Source: a virus (lineage: Duplodnaviria; Heunggongvirae; Uroviricota; Caudoviricetes). From it: a DNA stretch of 13,536 nt. The stretch covers positions 1-13,536 of IMG/VR virus record IMGVR_UViG_2671180571_000005; one strand, given 5' to 3'. Below the pieces are notes generated by a model. The model was not told the DNA's origin. It saw only the letters and a program-made list of their open reading frames with translations, and did not search any database. The translations under genes and the position numbers were made by a program. Shown here piece by piece: positions 128 through 5,354 of the stretch (position 1 is the first letter of the stretch; every line of letters starts with the position of its first letter).

Positions 128-2011
128 ATGAGCAAAGTAAAAATCGGTGAATTAATAAACTCACTTGTTAGCGATGTTGAGTCAATAGATAACTCTGACC
201 GTCCTCAAGGGGAAAAAACAAAAAAAATAAAAGCTGTTGCATTAAAATTTAAAAATGCATTATTTAATGACAAGCGAAAGTTTAGGGGGAAAGGATTAGA
301 AAAAAGAATTACAGCCAACACATTCAATGCCTATATGAGCAGGGCCAGAAAACGGTTTGATGATAAACTTCATCATAGCTTTGAAAAAAATATACATCGC
401 CTATCTGAAAAGTATCCTTTATATAATGAGGAGCTATTATCATGGCTTTCTCTACCTGCTGCCGATATTCGCCAGAGAATGTCAGCTTTACAGGCAAAAT
501 TAAAATTAATTCTCCCTTTATCAGAAGATTTATCTAATATCAGAATTGGTGATAACAAAAGTCATAATAAGTTATTAAAATTATCAAATAAATATAAAGA
601 GTGGCAATTCGCCATTTCTGATTTAACTAGCGATAACTGGAAAGATAAGCGCGATTATTTATATAAATTACTACAGCAAGGATCTGCCTTACTTGAGGAG
701 TTGAATCAGCTAAAAGTTAACCATGAGATTCTCTATCATCTTCAACTAAGCCCTGCCGAACGCGCATCTATCCAGCAACGATGGGCAGACGTTCTGCACA
801 ATAAGAAACGTAACGTGGTGGTCATTGATTACCCTAAATATATGCAAGCTATTTACGATATTATAAATAGCCCTGCTACATTAAATAATCTAAACACTCG
901 TTCAGGTATGGCTCCTTTGGCATTTGCACTTGCTGCATTGTCAGGAAGACGAATGATTGAGATTATGTATCAAGGTACATTTACTGTTTCTGGTAAGTAT
1001 ACCGTTGATTTTTTAGGCCAAGCAAAAAAAAGAACTTCTGATGATATAACCAGAAAAATATATACATTATGCGAAGCAAAAACATTTGTTTATTTAATAA
1101 ATGTACTTCGCTCATGCCCAGCAGCATCTGATTTTGATGATGTTGTTAAAGGTTATGGAGATAACGACACACGCTCTGAAAACGGACGGATTAATGCCAT
1201 ATTAGCAAAGGCTTTTAACCCGTGGGTTAAATCATTTTTCAAAGATGACCGCCGTGTTTATAAAGATAGTCGTGCTATTTATGCCCGTATTGCGTATGAA
1301 ATGTTTTTCCGCGTAGATCCTCGTTGGAAAAACGTAGATGAGGATGTTTTCTTTATGGAAATTTTAGGCCATGACGATGAAAACACTCAATTACACTATA
1401 AGCAATTCAAGCTGGCCAACTTCTCAAAGACATGGAGGCCAAATACTGGAAACGAAAATACCAGGCTGGAAGCATTGCAGCAGCTTGATGACGAAATGCC
1501 AGGATTCGCCAGAGGAGATGCCGGAGTTCGTCTGCATAACACAGTTAAGCAGCTGGTAGAGCAGGACCCCTCTATAAAAATCACGAACAGCACTCTAAGA
1601 GCATTCAAATTTAGCCCTACAATGATTAGTCGATACCTGGAATTTGCTGCTGATGCTCTGGGGCAATTTGTTGGCGAAAATGGACAATGGCAGCTGAAAA
1701 TAGATTCTCCAGAAATCGTTATGCCTGACGAAGAAGAGCTGGAAGCAATACCTGAACAGGCGGATGAATTATCAGAGGATGACGATCTGGATGACGACGA
1801 AATTGAGATAGAGGAAGAGAGCATAGAAGAACAGCAACCACCCGCGCCTTCTTCACCTGTATCTAAGCCGGTATTTAAGCCTGTGAGAAATATTGGTGAT
1901 GGCTCATACGTTGTTGAGTTTCATTATAATGGCCAGAATTATGCTTGGTCCGGCAGTGCAAACAGCCCTATGTCAGCAATGCAGTTAGCATGGCTGACAT
2001 ATTTCGGATAA
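128..2011 (+). CDS. telN: Protelomerase (telomere resolvase), TelN/TelK family
   Basis: 627-aa ORF with SD AGGAG (116-120) 7 nt upstream of the ATG. The translation (MSKVKIGELIN..., ...RAIYARIAYEMFF..., acidic C-terminal tail) is recognisably very similar to coliphage N15 TelN as I remember it. Recognised from memory, not searched. Confidence 0.85.
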   Translation: MSKVKIGELINSLVSDVESIDNSDRPQGEKTKKIKAVALKFKNALFNDKRKFRGKGLEKRITANTFNAYMSRARKRFDDKLHHSFEKNIHRLSEKYPLYNEELLSWLSLPAADIRQRMSALQAKLKLILPLSEDLSNIRIGDNKSHNKLLKLSNKYKEWQFAISDLTSDNWKDKRDYLYKLLQQGSALLEELNQLKVNHEILYHLQLSPAERASIQQRWADVLHNKKRNVVVIDYPKYMQAIYDIINSPATLNNLNTRSGMAPLAFALAALSGRRMIEIMYQGTFTVSGKYTVDFLGQAKKRTSDDITRKIYTLCEAKTFVYLINVLRSCPAASDFDDVVKGYGDNDTRSENGRINAILAKAFNPWVKSFFKDDRRVYKDSRAIYARIAYEMFFRVDPRWKNVDEDVFFMEILGHDDENTQLHYKQFKLANFSKTWRPNTGNENTRLEALQQLDDEMPGFARGDAGVRLHNTVKQLVEQDPSIKITNSTLRAFKFSPTMISRYLEFAADALGQFVGENGQWQLKIDSPEIVMPDEEELEAIPEQADELSEDDDLDDDEIEIEEESIEEQQPPAPSSPVSKPVFKPVRNIGDGSYVVEFHYNGQNYAWSGSANSPMSAMQLAWLTYFG

Positions 2012-2182: not shown

Positions 2183-2956
2183 CTATTTATTAGTGATTTC
2201 TGCTGGCTTTAACTGCGCGGATAACTGCTCAAGTTTTTGAACTGCCAGTTCAAAATGCGCGGGTAACGCCTTTTCCAGATCAGAGTTAATATCGGTGATG
2301 GGCAAATCACCACACGACATACTCCGCCTACCCCCACGAACAACATCACGCAACAACTCTCGTTCATACGTGCGCATGTTCCCCAATGCCGACTCAGCAG
2401 CCGTCAAAATCCGGCGCAGTTCTGCCGTAATTGCTGGCAAATCATCAACAGTTATGGGGTTCGGGGATGGATTACGACACGCCCGACGCAAAGCTAACCA
2501 TACACCGCTAATCCAGGCATTTCGGTACTGAAAACTTTGTGCTATATCGTTAATCAGCCCTCGCAGATACTCTTTCTGCCTCCAGTTCAACGGCTCTGCT
2601 GCTCGCATTGGCTCAGGCTCGATGTAAACGTACTCTCCATTTTTGCGAATAGAGGGCAAGACTTCGTTCGTTACCCATTTGCGAAACCGCCAAGCTGTTG
2701 TGCCTTGCTTCACCGCGTCACGGCAGCGGAGAATGAGGGTGTAAAGACCTGATTCGCTGATGATATTGGCTTGACCTTGACGGCCTATGTTAAACATAGA
2801 TCGCTCATCTTCATCTAATCTAGCGATAGCTTGTGTGACATTCTGGATGCTTAAAGCATTGCAAATATCATTCGCCACAAACCACGGATCGCCGTTAATC
2901 ATCACTACACGTACCTGATGCTCTTCCTGAAAGGAAAAGACTGCTAACGCGCTCAT
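2183..2956 (-). CDS. Bro-N domain protein, putative antirepressor
   Basis: 257-aa ORF with strong SD AGGAGG 4-5 nt upstream. N-terminus FSFQEEHQVRVVMINGDPWFVANDICNALSI matches the Bro-N / phage antirepressor N-terminal signature (F.F....IRV....G.PWF.A.D....L). Start overlaps the stop of the upstream gene as ATGA. Last gene of an icd-like operon, the position occupied by ant in P1. Confidence 0.7.
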   Translation of the reverse strand: MSALAVFSFQEEHQVRVVMINGDPWFVANDICNALSIQNVTQAIARLDEDERSMFNIGRQGQANIISESGLYTLILRCRDAVKQGTTAWRFRKWVTNEVLPSIRKNGEYVYIEPEPMRAAEPLNWRQKEYLRGLINDIAQSFQYRNAWISGVWLALRRACRNPSPNPITVDDLPAITAELRRILTAAESALGNMRTYERELLRDVVRGGRRSMSCGDLPITDINSDLEKALPAHFELAVQKLEQLSAQLKPAEITNK

Positions 2957-3186
2957 TCAGCCTCCTTATCGCGCAGCAAGTGCGACGAGAGAGACGCAGA
3001 ATATCCCTGTGCTTCATGCGTTAACTCACACGCAATCTGCAGAAGTTTTCCAGCCTCTGAGAGGTAAATCGACGCCTCACAACTGGAGACTGTCCGATGG
3101 GCTGATGATACGAGCGCATAGACCTGAGCCAGACGTTCATCCAACGATTCCAGCAGGCCAACAGTGTTCATTTTTACCTGATTCAT
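2953..3186 (-). CDS. Hypothetical protein (77 aa), middle gene of the icd-like/antirepressor operon
   Basis: ORF with SD GAGGTG 5 nt upstream. ATGA overlap with the icd-like ORF upstream and with the Bro-N gene downstream (translational coupling on both sides). No recognisable motif. Confidence 0.55.
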   Translation of the reverse strand: MNQVKMNTVGLLESLDERLAQVYALVSSAHRTVSSCEASIYLSEAGKLLQIACELTHEAQGYSASLSSHLLRDKEAE

Positions 3187-3347
3187 GCAGCCACCTCGCG
3201 CACCGGAATACGGGCAGATAATACCAGGACAAACCGGCTGGCGAACTGGCGACGAGCTTCCCGTTCAGATGACGCGATAGTGGAAAGATGATGAATGTGG
3301 GACTTTTTGTCTGTGCGAACGACTGCCGCAAATTTGAATTTGAACAT
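3183..3347 (-). CDS. icd: Icd-like host cell division inhibitor (54 aa)
   Basis: Not in the supplied ORF track (below size cutoff). My translation: MFKFKFAAVVRTDKKSHIHHLSTIASSEREARRQFASRFVLVLSARIPVREVAA. The pattern F.F.AV.R.D....EREARR...F.L..AR.PV.EV is what I remember for Icd-like proteins of P1-type immI regions. SD GGAG 8 nt upstream; its stop overlaps the next start (ATGA). The 128-aa track ORF 3137..3523 in another frame is probably spurious. Confidence 0.55.
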   Translation of the reverse strand: MFKFKFAAVVRTDKKSHIHHLSTIASSEREARRQFASRFVLVLSARIPVREVAA

Positions 3348-3402
3348 GGTATGCACTCCGTTTTATTGGTCGTGCTACCACCAGAGTTGCGAATCTCTTT
3401 AT

Positions 3403-3482
3403 TGGTGGTAGCCCAGGCGGGGTTCGCAATACCGGTAAACGAAGAAACCGGCCCGACCGAAGTCAGCCCCACCTGAGCCACC
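3403..3482 (-). ncRNA. Candidate C4/CI/cA-type antisense immunity RNA (tRNA-like, 3' ...ACCACCA)
   Basis: On the minus strand the 5' end GGUGGCUCAGG (3482-3472) pairs with the 3' end CCUGGGCUACC (two G-U pairs), giving an acceptor-like stem ending ACCACCA. Internal UUCG-tetraloop hairpin CUGAC-UUCG-GUCGG and CCGGU-N10-ACCGG stem. Two segments (AUUGCGAA at 3430-3423, GCUACCACCA at 3412-3403) are complementary to repeated targets upstream (3552-3565) and downstream (3374-3395) on the same strand. Ends are approximate; folded by eye. Confidence 0.4.
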
Positions 3483-3513
3483 ATAATTCGGATATGCGCA
3501 GGTCTATACACAC

Positions 3514-3536
3514 AAAAAAACACGCTGGCGCGTGTT
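3514..3536 (-). terminator. Rho-independent terminator-like hairpin in the leader of the icd-like operon
   Basis: Minus strand reads AACACGC-GCCA-GCGUGUU followed by a run of U (plus-strand A-run 3514-3520). Sits between the upstream target repeat and the candidate RNA; could be the regulated attenuator or the terminator of the lipoprotein transcript. Confidence 0.4.
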
Positions 3537-3727
3537 GTGCGCTTCGTTTTGCCAGGATTGCGAAGTCCCGACTGCGGGATTTACCGCAGCGAGGTGACTT
3601 TACCTCCAAAACGACGCACACGTCAATAATTTGCAAAGACATTTTACCCCGTGACCAGTCACGGGGACAGGTGTTTTTATAGTTTGCTTGAACAAACGAT
3701 CAGAACATGAACAATGTTATTGTTCCG

Positions 3728-4540
3728 TTATAAGAAAGCCTCACGCGAACGGAACACCCACTCTAGCTGTACTGGATAAATTTCTCCCGTTTTAATATTT
3801 ATTATGCGCGCGGCTAATAACTCACCCATAAAAACCTGAGTTTTATGGCTCATATCTGACGGGTTAAAAATAGTAGGTGATGTTATATCAATATGATTGC
3901 TGCTTAACCCATTTATCTTTGCTAAATATTCAATTCTAAGGTCTTTTACATTAACATCTTTTGGCATTTGTCCTTTTATATCAATATCTGCCCATATTGT
4001 TTCAGGGTTCCCTTCATTTATTTGTGTACTACCAAAGATAATTTCGGCACCTAAAGTATTTAACACTTCTACATCAGCAGATATTCCAAAAGCATTAGCA
4101 CCAACATAGCTTCCATGCTTTGTTATTTCAGAGGAATCGACATGAAAACCATACCATCCAGACATATCTCGAGATGTTATCACGCTATCACTACCGCTAT
4201 TCTCAGCAAAATCACGGTTAAGATATGTTCCTGAGTATGTGATACTTCTAGGGATAGACAAACCTTGAGATGTTAAAACGTTGTTGTATGGCGCGTATGT
4301 TAATGAGTGAACGACATATCCACGCCATGAACCATCATCTATCTTTGATGCAATAATTCTATTAAATTCCTTACCTGTGAGTATTTTGCTGCTAAAATCA
4401 CCAACAGAGTTGATAGGTACTCTTTTTTCTTTTTCGAATTTATACTCAACGTCCGTTGATGCCTTATTATCATATTGATAAGTGCATCCAGATAATAACA
4501 AGATAGAGAGTAATAAAGCTGTTGTTTTTTTGTTACGCAT
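3728..4540 (-). CDS. Lipoprotein of unknown function (AT-rich moron)
   Basis: 270-aa ORF. N-terminus MRNKKTTALLLSILLLSGC has a basic n-region, hydrophobic core and lipobox L-S-G-C (signal peptidase II type). Local GC about 32-35 percent against about 48-50 percent in repA (hand count of 60-bp samples). AT-rich upstream region 4541-4629. Confidence 0.7.
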   Translation of the reverse strand: MRNKKTTALLLSILLLSGCTYQYDNKASTDVEYKFEKEKRVPINSVGDFSSKILTGKEFNRIIASKIDDGSWRGYVVHSLTYAPYNNVLTSQGLSIPRSITYSGTYLNRDFAENSGSDSVITSRDMSGWYGFHVDSSEITKHGSYVGANAFGISADVEVLNTLGAEIIFGSTQINEGNPETIWADIDIKGQMPKDVNVKDLRIEYLAKINGLSSNHIDITSPTIFNPSDMSHKTQVFMGELLAARIINIKTGEIYPVQLEWVFRSREAFL

Positions 4541-4629
4541 AATATTAACTTAACCTATTTGATTAATAATATGTTATTCCATTAAATAAAATATGCCGAG
4601 AACGGTTTAACTTGAACAGTCATCACTAT

Positions 4630-5037
4630 TCAATCAACTTTTTTAGCATCAGCCATACGCTTCAACCAGTAATCAACAATCGGTTGCTCATCCACAGAAT
4701 GTTTACCAGGTATAACTCGCCAGCTATCTTGCGAAAATCTGCCGTACTTACGCGGGAATAGGCCTTTCTTTATCTCCCGCCATGTACTAGGAAAACCATC
4801 CACAAAAGTACCAATTAACAGGAGAGGGACAAAAATCAGAGCTACAAACCATCGTGCAAGAAAGTGTTCAACAACAACATTTTCACCGTTGTAGTAATAC
4901 GCATACGCATCCAATATGCGAATTTTCCTTACCTTAAAAATAGCCTTATGCTGAGAACGACTTAACTTGATACGAATGTATCCCTTATCCAAAGGGGATT
5001 CGTATTCGTATGATTGAACAGCCATTTTTAACCCCAC
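4630..5037 (-). CDS. Hypothetical membrane protein (135 aa)
   Basis: ORF with one strongly hydrophobic segment (WFVALIFVPLLLIGTFV). Start overlaps the end of the upstream 108-aa gene by 10 bp. No recognisable catalytic motif. Confidence 0.5.
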   Translation of the reverse strand: MGLKMAVQSYEYESPLDKGYIRIKLSRSQHKAIFKVRKIRILDAYAYYYNGENVVVEHFLARWFVALIFVPLLLIGTFVDGFPSTWREIKKGLFPRKYGRFSQDSWRVIPGKHSVDEQPIVDYWLKRMADAKKVD

Positions 5038-5354
5038 TCACCATCAGCAAACAAAGCGTTATACTCTGACAATGGTAGACGGTTGCCCTCGATGTAGAGA
5101 TTCAGTTCATACTTCGTCTCCGGGTTTTCCTTGTCGGCTCGTTCCCAACGCTCAGCAGCCTTACGCGCCAATAATTCCACTGCTTTCAGATAATCCTCCG
5201 TACGGAACCAGCCAAAGATAAGGCCACGATCTGTTACAGCCCAGGCGACCTTTTTTTCTTCCTCCTGGATAGCCCTAATGCGTCGTTCGCATTCATCCCG
5301 GCAGAACTGCAGCTGACGGTAATCAAGTTTGTCCAAAAATGCAGTAGTAGACAT
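5028..5354 (-). CDS. Hypothetical protein (108 aa)
   Basis: ORF with SD GGGGAG about 7 nt upstream of the ATG; tightly packed between the small membrane ORF and the 135-aa gene. Function unknown. Confidence 0.5.
   Translation of the reverse strand: MSTTAFLDKLDYRQLQFCRDECERRIRAIQEEEKKVAWAVTDRGLIFGWFRTEDYLKAVELLARKAAERWERADKENPETKYELNLYIEGNRLPLSEYNALFADGEWG

Follow-up and report, generated by a model that had tools for sequence, protein, structure and literature searches.

The question raised by this locus is whether the minus-strand leader of an icd-like/antirepressor operon encodes an antisense-RNA immunity switch, as a preliminary description of the sequence had proposed, and which known system it belongs to. 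The window (the whole stretch of DNA analysed, 13,536 nucleotides) is an N15-like linear telomere phage-plasmid, a plasmid-prophage of E. coli. The minus-strand region is a C4/CI/cA-type antisense-RNA switch and forms the leader of the operon. The proposal was borne out by the match to the Rfam C4 model, by 82% nucleotide identity across the leader to the experimentally studied cA region of N15, by the icd, AntA and AntB genes downstream and by compensatory changes in relatives. The strings quoted in the preliminary description were all correctly placed on the minus strand. With a probability of roughly 90%, the region is an immA-type anti-immunity control region, orthologous to the CA RNA system of N15 and with the architecture of P1 c4-icd-ant and P4 seqA-CI-seqC. 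This type of switch is already known and ordinary. It has been known in P1 since 1990 and in N15 since 1999, and curated Rfam models recognise it.

The genes controlled by the leader and the gene adjoining them are as follows.

3183..3347, minus strand: icd-like gene, 54 aa, first cistron (NCBIfam NF033153 phage_ICD_like, 67 bits)
2953..3186, minus strand: antA-like gene, 77 aa (63% identity to N15 gp31; PHROG 'anti-repressor' phrog_10889)
2183..2956, minus strand: antB-like Bro-N antirepressor gene, 257 aa (Pfam Bro-N, E = 9e-21; 73% identity to N15 gp30)
128..2011, plus strand: telN (protelomerase gene), adjoining the icd-antA-antB operon

The Icd-like protein shares 94% identity with N15 Icd and 50% with the P4 homologue, and the same CDS is annotated in RefSeq. 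The start of antA overlaps the stop of icd in an ATGA (3186..3183) and the start of antB overlaps the stop of antA in another (2956..2953). The arrangement is that of the N15 immA operon, with leader RNA, icd, antA and antB beside telN, and the encoded proteins are homologous. A 'second copy' of the locus was seen in phage YDC107_1 as a mirror-image duplicate, in which the protelomerase gene is present a second time. This duplicate is most likely the product of assembly through the hairpin telomere and not a second switch. Plasmid NZ_LT906558 also showed a 'second copy' of the locus.

The structured RNA of the leader was identified by covariance-model search, a check that had been suggested for it beforehand.

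3401..3488, minus strand: C4/CA/CI-type antisense RNA (Rfam C4 RF01695)

The match at 3488..3401 scored 82.3 bits (E = 2.6e-15) against a gathering threshold of 45 and covered model positions 1-87 of 87. The RNA comprises a 17-bp acceptor-like stem enclosing hairpin 1 and hairpin 2. The tRNA-like RNA described earlier at 3482-3403 folded as proposed (dG -48.1 kcal/mol, z = -5.6). None of 200 shuffles folded equally well, and the minimum-free-energy fold was the consensus structure of the model. Across 15 homologues 99.3% of the cells were paired, with two-sided changes in 14 of 27 pairs; this was reached by 0 of 500 shuffles, and pairing fell to 29-48% when the partner columns of the alignment were slid. 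By homology with the annotated c4 RNA of P1, the mature RNA is predicted to span 3482..3403 (approximately 80 nt), beginning with G and ending in A-CCA. The P1 c4 RNA begins and finishes at equivalent model positions. Pairing begins at G3482 and A-CCA occupies 3406..3403, which would be consistent with a 5' end made by RNase P and a CCA end.

Upstream of this RNA a promoter, a leader RNA and a terminator were located.

3597..3626, minus strand: Pa-like sigma-70 promoter (-35 TTGACG 3626..3621, 18-nt spacer, -10 TAAAGT 3602..3597)
3515..3590, minus strand: IsrK / P4 seqA-type leader RNA (Rfam isrK RF01394)
3588..3573, minus strand: leader hairpin 1 (fold of the leader alone)
3572..3551, minus strand: leader hairpin 2, with a1 in its loop (fold of the leader alone)
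3514..3536, minus strand: intrinsic (Rho-independent) terminator (7-bp stem 3536..3519 and seven T 3520..3514; terminator scan)

In a promoter scan TTGACG-18-TAAAGT, earlier put forward as a possible promoter, was the sole sigma-70-like site within 3100..3800, and transcription is predicted to start at about 3590 on the minus strand. TTGACG and the -10 hexamer are kept in all N15-like relatives, and their distance to leader hairpin 1 is unchanged. The isrK model matched at 3590..3515 with 52.8 bits, a marginal pass of its gathering threshold of 50, and scored 54.9-76 bits in relatives. As in the isrK family, an intrinsic terminator follows the two hairpins at the 5' end of the leader. In the isrK model this terminator is hairpin 3; it was independently confirmed by the terminator scan and corresponds to the terminator-like hairpin noticed previously at 3514-3536. 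The c4-a1b1 model (RF03163) gave 24.8 bits at 3603..3549 (E = 3.8e-4), below its gathering threshold of 46.7; it passes in NAR688, phiKO2, Klebsiella phage 020009 and P1 (47.7-52.2 bits). The leader was not filed under c4-a1b1 because of this score, and the isrK match spans the same hairpins.

The position of the terminator 5' of the RNA had been taken as a sign of a mechanistic variant, a suggestion that did not hold up. The N15 record has a 'putative rho-indep. transcription terminator' annotated at the homologous spot, and the isrK and C4 models lie side by side in 12 of 12 relatives scanned and in P4. The terminator hairpin already forms in the minimum-free-energy fold of the leader alone, so the sequence gives no support for C4 being needed in, or enhancing, termination. 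A terminator-like hairpin was also seen 5' of the RNA in P1, judged by eye alone.

The antisense segments and their targets, named after the P1 nomenclature, are listed below.

3423..3430, minus strand: a', AUUGCGAA, unpaired, at the C4 multiloop junction
3437..3444, minus strand: b', CUUCGUUU, the C4 hairpin-2 loop and canonical b' in P1 nomenclature
3557..3564, minus strand: a1 target, UUCGCAAU, exact 8-nt complement of a'
3542..3549, minus strand: b1 target, AAACGAAG, exact 8-nt complement of the C4 hairpin-2 loop
3387..3393, minus strand: a2 target, UUCGCAA, in the loop of a small AGAG/CUCU hairpin directly 3' of C4
3356..3363, minus strand: b2 target, AAACGGAG, forming 8 bp with b', one of them G-U

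The exposed a' and b' are each complementary to one upstream and one downstream site in the same transcript. Complementarity was assessed by shuffling each target 5000 times. The 8-nt match of a' AUUGCGAA to the upstream target a1 was equalled in 7 of 5000 shuffles, its 7-nt match to the downstream target a2 in 82 of 5000 and the 8-nt match of b' to b1 in 80 of 5000. Leader hairpin 2 has an 8-nt loop, which holds seven of the 8 nt of a1. The b1 site is single-stranded between leader hairpin 2 and the terminator, matching the position of the annotated b1 of P1. The b2 site includes the icd Shine-Dalgarno GGAG (3359..3356) and matches the position of the annotated b2 of P1, 10 nt before icd. The combined a+b motif was found in the 13.5-kb window solely at the two predicted target sites.

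The preliminary description had both of its antisense segments complementary to both an upstream target (CUUCGCAAUCCUGG, 3565..3552 on the minus strand) and a downstream target (GAUUCGCAACUCUGGUGGUAGC, 3395..3374 on the minus strand). This is correct for AUUGCGAA; GCUACCACCA is complementary to the downstream target only. The labels a and b also had to be revised. In the P1 GenBank record a' is the multiloop junction and b' the hairpin-2 loop, and the segment formerly called b' (GCUACCACCA) is another element. The hairpin-2 loop pairs CUUCGUUU/AAACGAAG and CUUCGUUU/AAACGGAG had been missed. The downstream target had been placed about 25 nt before the icd Shine-Dalgarno, but its end is 15 nt before GGAG 3359..3356, a distance that depends on the measuring point.

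The antisense block and the leader gave a near-continuous duplex of about 25 nt (-28.4 kcal/mol), and the antisense block and the downstream site gave a split duplex (-21.9 kcal/mol). When mature C4 was run in RNAcofold against the leader or the downstream target, the ddG was 0 to -0.9 kcal/mol. The prediction of no stable intermolecular complex is expected, since loop-loop and junction contacts cannot be modelled by RNAcofold. TTCGCAA also occurs inside antB (2649..2643 and 2685..2679, minus strand). These sites were rejected as extra targets, with no b-type site nearby, and were treated as chance because the 7 sites observed compare with 3.4 expected and 9 of 200 shuffles reach 7.

Co-variation of the segments with their targets was followed across 87 loci. 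Cognate matches of at least 7 nt between a' and its target were found in 93% of the loci upstream and 98% downstream, compared to 5% and 1% for non-cognate combinations. For b' the cognate matches were 86% upstream and 80% downstream, compared to 13% and 14%. Among 76 IMG/VR loci there were 22 a' types and 39 b' loops in 50 combinations, and the hypervariable positions were exactly those matching the RNA targets. Compensatory changes between antisense segment and targets are present in relatives. Relative to N15, two positions differ in a' (AUUGCGAA here, GUUGAGAA in N15) and two in b' (CUUCGUUU here, CUUCUUGU in N15). With a', b' and their targets all differing, the immunity specificity does not appear to be that of the N15 CA RNA. 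Every changed, paired base in a' and b' is matched in the target, and the allele is therefore predicted to be heterospecific with N15. The co-variation table can serve as a catalogue of specificity alleles for predicting cross-silencing of antirepressors among co-resident prophages and satellites.

The element GCUACCACCA was examined separately as c', together with its downstream partner.

3403..3412, minus strand: c', GCUACCACCA, the uppermost six bases of the acceptor-like stem on its 3' strand, followed by the ACCA tail
3374..3383, minus strand: c2, UGGUGGUAGC, complementary to c'

The match of c' to the downstream target is 10 nt at 3383..3374 (4 of 5000 shuffles as good). Its best match in the upstream target is 4 nt (4980 of 5000 shuffles as good), and in leader hairpin 2 the upstream CCUGG makes up the 3' half of the stem. 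In 80% of the 87 loci c' had a c2 match of 7 nt or more; searched with c' as well, the larger upstream region gave such a match in 1%. The order a2, c2, b2 was kept in 78 of 78 loci having all three downstream sites. Two-sided changes of c'/c2 were found in P4 (GCUAUCGCC/GGCGAUAGC), phiKO2 (GGGUCACCACC/GGUGGUGAUCU) and an IMG/VR locus (GUCCAUCACC/GGUGAUGGGU). In free mRNA the predicted fold instead has c2 paired to the region where icd translation starts (GUGCAUACCAU, about 3356..3346). A role of c' as a third functional contact, outside the a/b nomenclature of P1, is suggested only tentatively, at perhaps one chance in four. If true, c2 could be a toehold through which the free 3' tail of C4 opens the hairpin where c2 sequesters the icd initiation region. 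Alternatively, c2 could act as a switch in cis, in competition with the 5' acceptor strand, and so control maturation of the RNA by RNase P.

The following sequence of events is proposed. The promoter at 3626..3597 would drive leftward transcription of the minus strand from about 3590. Many transcripts would end at the terminator (3536..3514) as a leader RNA of about 77 nt resembling IsrK/seqA. Read-through transcripts would hold the tRNA-like module, from which a 5' cut by RNase P and 3' trimming, as in homologues, may produce the RNA of about 80 nt (3482..3403). Its antisense element would consist of two exposed segments, the b' loop (3444..3437) and the adjacent a' junction (3430..3423), and specificity would reside in the sequences of a' and b'. 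By analogy with P4 and N15, pairing of a'/b' with a1/b1 in the nascent leader may reinforce termination as a negative feedback. CA-dependent termination in N15 was reportedly described by Ravin and co-workers in 1999. The same segments would also pair with a2/b2 on the read-through mRNA. It is proposed that icd would then be left untranslated because b2 covers its Shine-Dalgarno sequence, and that through the ATGA stop/start overlaps of icd, antA and antB the antirepressor genes would stay silent. Silent antA and antB may in addition be exposed to Rho-dependent polarity, as in homologous systems. By homology, repression of the downstream operon in trans is expected as in N15, P1 and P4; that b2 overlaps the icd Shine-Dalgarno was seen directly.

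Several records suggest a different product for this stretch, a small protein repressor. A cA CDS is present in U63086, whose source record calls cA 'secondary immunity repressor', RefSeq has an 'ash family protein' over the homologous stretch and the phiKO2 and P4 records have 'transcriptional repressor' CDSs there. A 128-aa ORF does span 3523..3137 in the window. However, it had no Pfam or NCBIfam match, it would start inside the terminator hairpin and run through icd in another frame, and RefSeq marks it partial/pseudogene in a record identical to the window. Substitutions in homologues keep the base pairing (14 two-sided pairs) and not the reading frame, and the exact coincidence of hypervariable positions with RNA-target matches also speaks for an RNA. 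The cA/ash ORF was rejected as protein-coding since it is without family support, and a protein repressor is considered highly improbable. Even less credible is a remnant without regulatory role, either a degenerate tRNA gene or a tRNA-like integration site, with complementarities due to chance. Such a remnant would explain the acceptor-like stem and the terminal A-CCA, but ARAGORN called no tRNA at the C4 RNA, the anticodon and T arm are absent and the stem is 17 bp. Few shuffles equal any one of the complementarities, which co-vary across the 87 loci. Together, pairing covariation, shuffles, ARAGORN and the 87-locus co-variation effectively refute this explanation.

A positive loop of the IsrK type, added to repression or replacing it, is unlikely but deserves more weight than either of these. 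The terminated leader with a1/b1 would be a decoy in trans for b'/a' of C4, with the C4 moiety free or within the read-through transcript. The icd ribosome binding site would be opened and the antirepressor operon turned on, as by IsrK in Gifsy-1. The leader passes the isrK model, and about 25 nt of it are complementary to the C4 antisense block (-28.4 kcal/mol), both of which fit such a loop. Against it, the small RNA is a repressor according to the genetics of N15 and P1. The ORF overlapping C4 in the window is without family support, and a separate icd with its own Shine-Dalgarno follows C4 here, unlike orf45 in Gifsy-1. In Gifsy-1, IsrK supplied in trans raised anrP translation more than 100-fold and a processed downstream RNA, STnc1160, was detected (PMC4825925). 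The start of orf45 is about 30 nt past the IsrK terminator, a position at which orf45 would overlap the C4-like region. The positive loop would supplement repression by the C4 antisense RNA, which is the preferred reading, and would not exclude it.

Public records identical or nearly identical to the window have no RNA feature; where the RNA lies they show a CDS, 'ash family protein' or 'hypothetical protein', that is spurious. The practical value of the result is in annotation, and it has little weight as a discovery. In the literature IsrK has been equated with seqA and C4 with CI, with P1, P7 and N15 listed as similar systems (PMC3632133). The equivalence of IsrK with P4 seqA and of C4 with CI RNA is also drawn in PMC4825925, where the CI-dependent termination model of P4 is summarised.

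The Gifsy-1 IsrK / STnc1160 / orf45-anrP locus of Salmonella (Hershko-Shalev et al. 2016, PMC4825925) resembles the present locus in having a leader RNA of the isrK Rfam family, a downstream RNA from terminator read-through and a translationally coupled antirepressor downstream. It differs in that activation in trans has been demonstrated for its short leader RNA; Gifsy-1 is the only case for which Hfq binding and trans-activation by a short isrK RNA have been reported (PMC4825925). Judged by its position, the coupled orf45 also seems to overlap the C4-like region, while here a separate icd follows the RNA. The immunity system of P4, as outlined in PMC4825925 and PMC3632133, has a CI RNA flanked upstream by seqA and downstream by seqC (Sabbattini et al. 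1995; Forti et al. 2002). P4 gave matches to isrK (60.8 bits) and C4 (74.9 bits) in the same order. It has an intrinsic terminator in the leader, all of the a1/b1 and a2/c2/b2 sites and a downstream Icd-like protein (50% identity). The spacer from terminator to RNA is about 107 nt in P4 compared to 26 nt here, and the P4 operon contains replication and helper-derepression genes and no antirepressor.

The immI region of P1/P7 has the c4 antisense RNA, a1/b1 and a2/b2 targets, icd and ant1/2 (Citron & Schuster 1990; NC_005856 features), and the role of P1 C4 in repressing ant has been described (PMC8198154). The curated a1/b1/c4/a2/b2 features of P1 map one-to-one onto the sites found here. P1 shares the C4 RNA family (68.8 bits in P1) and cloverleaf-like fold, with a' in the junction and b' in the hairpin-2 loop, and its annotated b1/b2 GTTAGTG complement the loop of P1 c4. 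The a1/b1 sites are just past the promoter, a2 is directly 3' of the RNA and b2 is at the icd ribosome binding site. The annotated P1c4 (P51b) promoter is in the equivalent position, and icd is followed by an antirepressor. The P1 leader passes c4-a1b1 and not isrK, the reverse of the window. The antirepressor proteins are different family members, and the c'-c2 complementarity is only 6 nt in P1 compared to 10 nt here. In P1 there is a C1 operator at the upstream promoter.

In the immA region of N15 the CA RNA controls icd-antA-antB (Ravin, Svarchevsky & Deho 1999, Mol Microbiol 34:980, as cited in PMC3632133, PMC4488713 and PMC10612081). The window differs from N15 in the cargo genes upstream of the promoter and in the a'/b' specificity sequences, and the targets differ correspondingly wherever a changed base is paired. 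Both have the same order of promoter, isrK-like leader with terminator, C4 RNA, icd, antA and antB, beside telN.

The whole window was scanned against Rfam at curated thresholds. Only two matches were found, adjoining each other on the minus strand: the C4 antisense RNA and isrK, the family of the P4 seqA-like leader. The preliminary description had proposed a C4/CI/cA-type antisense-RNA switch at 3370-3630. This identification was correct, the elements it listed were all present where it had placed them, and the covariance-model search it had suggested returned C4 above threshold. Its upstream target and terminator-like hairpin both lie inside the single isrK match. The promoter and terminator below come from one scan of 3100..3800.

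Features of the switch and its operon (window coordinates)
3626..3597, minus: sigma-70-like promoter TTGACG-18-TAAAGT, the sole such site in the scan
3590..3515, minus: isrK (RF01394), 52.8 bits, threshold 50
3564..3557, minus: a1, UUCGCAAU, leader hairpin 2 (8-nt loop)
3549..3542, minus: b1, AAACGAAG, single-stranded, just before the terminator
3536..3519, minus: intrinsic terminator, followed by a T run
3488..3401, minus: C4 antisense RNA (RF01695), 82.3 bits, threshold 45, E = 2.6e-15, full model length
3444..3437, minus: b', CUUCGUUU, loop of C4 hairpin 2
3430..3423, minus: a', AUUGCGAA, multiloop junction of C4
3412..3403, minus: c', GCUACCACCA, upper part of the acceptor-like stem's 3' strand, with the A-CCA tail
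3393..3387, minus: a2, UUCGCAA, loop of a small AGAG/CUCU hairpin
3383..3374, minus: c2, exact 10-nt complement of c'
3363..3356, minus: b2, AAACGGAG, including the icd Shine-Dalgarno GGAG (3359..3356)
3347..3183, minus: Icd-like protein (NF033153, 67 bits), 94% identical to N15
3186..2953, minus: AntA homologue, 63% identical to N15 gp31
2956..2183, minus: Bro-N antirepressor, 73% identical to N15 gp30

The C4 stretch takes the consensus structure of the model, as expected of the proposed structured RNA, with a dG of -48.1 kcal/mol and a z-score of -5.6 against dinucleotide shuffles. Fifteen homologues were aligned and parsed in the manner of P1: the window, N15, six other telomere phages or plasmids, two Stx phages, two P4-like satellite elements of E. 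coli, PY54, P4 and P1. The alignment backed the fold, with 99.3% of cells paired and two-sided changes in 14 of 27 pairs. None of 500 shuffles attained any of five measures, and sliding the partner columns lowered pairing to 29-48%. A tRNA remnant was excluded by this paired substitution pattern and by ARAGORN, which called no tRNA at the locus.

The P1 GenBank record holds curated features for a1, b1, the c4 RNA, a2 and b2. In the P1 sequence the loop of hairpin 2 forms b' (CACUAAC), and the unpaired junction that follows this hairpin forms a' (CUGUCAA); b2 lies 10 nt ahead of the icd start codon. The same four target sites occur at the same relative positions in all 15 homologues. The preliminary description had assigned a', a1 and a2 rightly and overlooked b', b1 and b2. 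No combined a and b motif was found elsewhere in the window beyond the predicted target sites. The a-type target heptamer TTCGCAA occurs 7 times in the window, where 3.4 would be expected. Two extra copies are on the mRNA strand within antB (2643..2649 and 2679..2685, minus); these are probably due to chance because neither has a b-type site nearby.

For the intermolecular contacts a pattern scan of IMG/VR contributed a further 76 non-redundant loci, and the set after filtering held 87. Matches of at least 7 nt between a' and the upstream target were found in 93% of cognate and 5% of non-cognate comparisons, and with the downstream target in 98% and 1%. The corresponding values for b' were 86% and 13% upstream and 80% and 14% downstream. 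The 76 IMG/VR loci contained 22 different a' sequences and 39 b' loops in 50 combinations. Such variation with cognate matching points to an antisense specificity determinant, of which it is the signature. One compared record, L052 (IMGVR_UViG_2910425090_000003), has two C4 genes approximately 1 kb apart (2410..2432 and 3415..3437) with unlike a' (AGUUCCAA and AGUGCAAA) and an identical b' loop, possibly tandem switches of different specificity.

Both segments named in the preliminary description, a' and c', had been said to match both targets. This held downstream, where the c' complement was equalled by 4 of 5000 shuffles. It was wrong for the upstream target because c' has no partner there better than chance (its best match is equalled by 4980 of 5000 shuffles). 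Across the 87 loci c'/c2 pairing of at least 7 nt was present in 80%, while c' queried against the larger upstream region reached this length in just 1%. The order a2, c2, b2 was kept in 78 of 78 loci having all three downstream sites. Two-sided changes in c'/c2 were seen in P4, phiKO2, an Stx phage and IMG/VR contigs. The c'/c2 pairing is a conserved third complementarity. When the mRNA is free, the predicted partner of c2 is instead the icd initiation region.

A terminator 5' of the RNA had been regarded as a possible variant. The isrK model itself ends in an intrinsic terminator, and an isrK-type leader lies directly upstream of C4 in 12 of 12 relatives scanned and in P4, so the arrangement is not unusual. 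Both leader hairpins are present in P1 (c4-a1b1, 51 bits), as is, judged by eye, a terminator-like hairpin with a T run ahead of c4.

The window belongs to a linear, N15-like phage-plasmid and has a protelomerase ORF at 128..2011. An E. coli plasmid record matches the switch locus at 100% identity, and phage PhiR46_1 does so at 99%. Three cistrons lie 3' of the RNA and each neighbouring pair shares an ATGA overlap, as translationally coupled genes usually do. A perfect palindrome, CCCCGTGAC-TG-GTCACGGGG (3647..3666), lies approximately 20 nt upstream of the -35 hexamer, between a lipoprotein-like ORF and the switch. It received no call in the terminator scan and may be a terminator or an insulator against upstream transcription. 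From the replication gene to the switch promoter (3728..5354, minus) the cargo genes are unlike gp33-36 of N15. They include a 270-aa ORF carrying a signal of the lipoprotein type (…LLLSGC) and lacking a Pfam match, and two ORFs matching PHROGs of unknown function. Klebsiella phage Kpn74 has colicin-like pore-former genes at this position. The RepA-to-protelomerase interval has been described as a variable toxin/immunity cargo locus (PMC12042878).

Some records carry the switch twice: YDC107_1 (CP025712.1, loci L003 and L136, 33.0-34.5 kb and 39.0-40.3 kb) and apparently NZ_LT906558, with matches in two places. The second YDC107_1 copy is a mirror image including a second protelomerase gene, and looks like assembly through the hairpin telomere rather than real duplication. 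In Stx phage P13771 (L013) antB2 and an antitermination gene flank an Rfam sRNA-Xcc1 match (2467..2550, 79.6 bits), approximately 0.9 kb downstream of the C4 locus.

The published mechanism for the C4 family is the best-supported reading for the window. In the P4 model CI RNA pairs with seqA and seqC, giving premature termination (PMC4825925), and C4 is needed for full repression of P1 ant (PMC8198154). Here, the promoter would fire and the leader terminator would stop many transcripts. Processing of read-through transcripts, by RNase P if the homologues are a guide, would free an RNA of approximately 80 nt. Through b' and a' this would pair with a1/b1 of the nascent leader, in a computed duplex near-continuous over approximately 25 nt (-28.4 kcal/mol), and enhance termination. 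It would also pair with a2/b2 of the read-through mRNA, b2 covering the icd Shine-Dalgarno, with a translational block and polarity as in the homologues. Family membership, fold, complementarity, co-variation, synteny and the b2/Shine-Dalgarno overlap are all found here. The leader terminator is the minimum-free-energy structure even without C4, so sequence alone gives no evidence that termination requires C4.

The short leader RNA might act in trans as activator or decoy, as in Gifsy-1, and do so alongside repression. The activated Gifsy-1 cistron, by position, appears to overlap the C4-like region, whereas the window has a separate icd gene after the RNA. Databases would have the region code for a protein repressor. 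CDSs drawn over the C4 RNA are named 'ash family protein' in RefSeq (flagged partial), 'cA secondary immunity repressor' in N15 (U63086) and 'transcriptional repressor' in phiKO2 and P4. These database CDSs lack family support, and the window ORF had no Pfam or NCBIfam match. A protein also conflicts with the RNA-type substitution pattern among homologues. Among the records inspected only that of P1 annotates C4 as RNA.

Protein CDSs or ORFs drawn over the C4 RNA in the window and compared loci
Window: 3137..3523, minus
L002: 413..715
L006: 1641..1811
L008: 3238..3360
L009: 1649..1825
L015: 1249..1665

The antisense-RNA switch is orthologous to that of N15. The window locus shares 82% identity with the N15 sequence deposited under the name 'secondary immunity repressor (cA)'. 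In the N15 genome record the homologous position, just ahead of gene 32, bears the label 'putative rho-indep. transcription terminator'. The two alleles differ by two bases in a' and two in b', and every changed base that pairs is answered by a corresponding change in its target. By analogy with the homologues the two would be heterospecific. IsrK has been equated with seqA and C4 with CI, with similar systems in P1, P7 and N15 (PMC3632133). The system is already known, and the window carries an orthologue of the N15 CA RNA switch that lacks annotation and has a specificity allele of its own.
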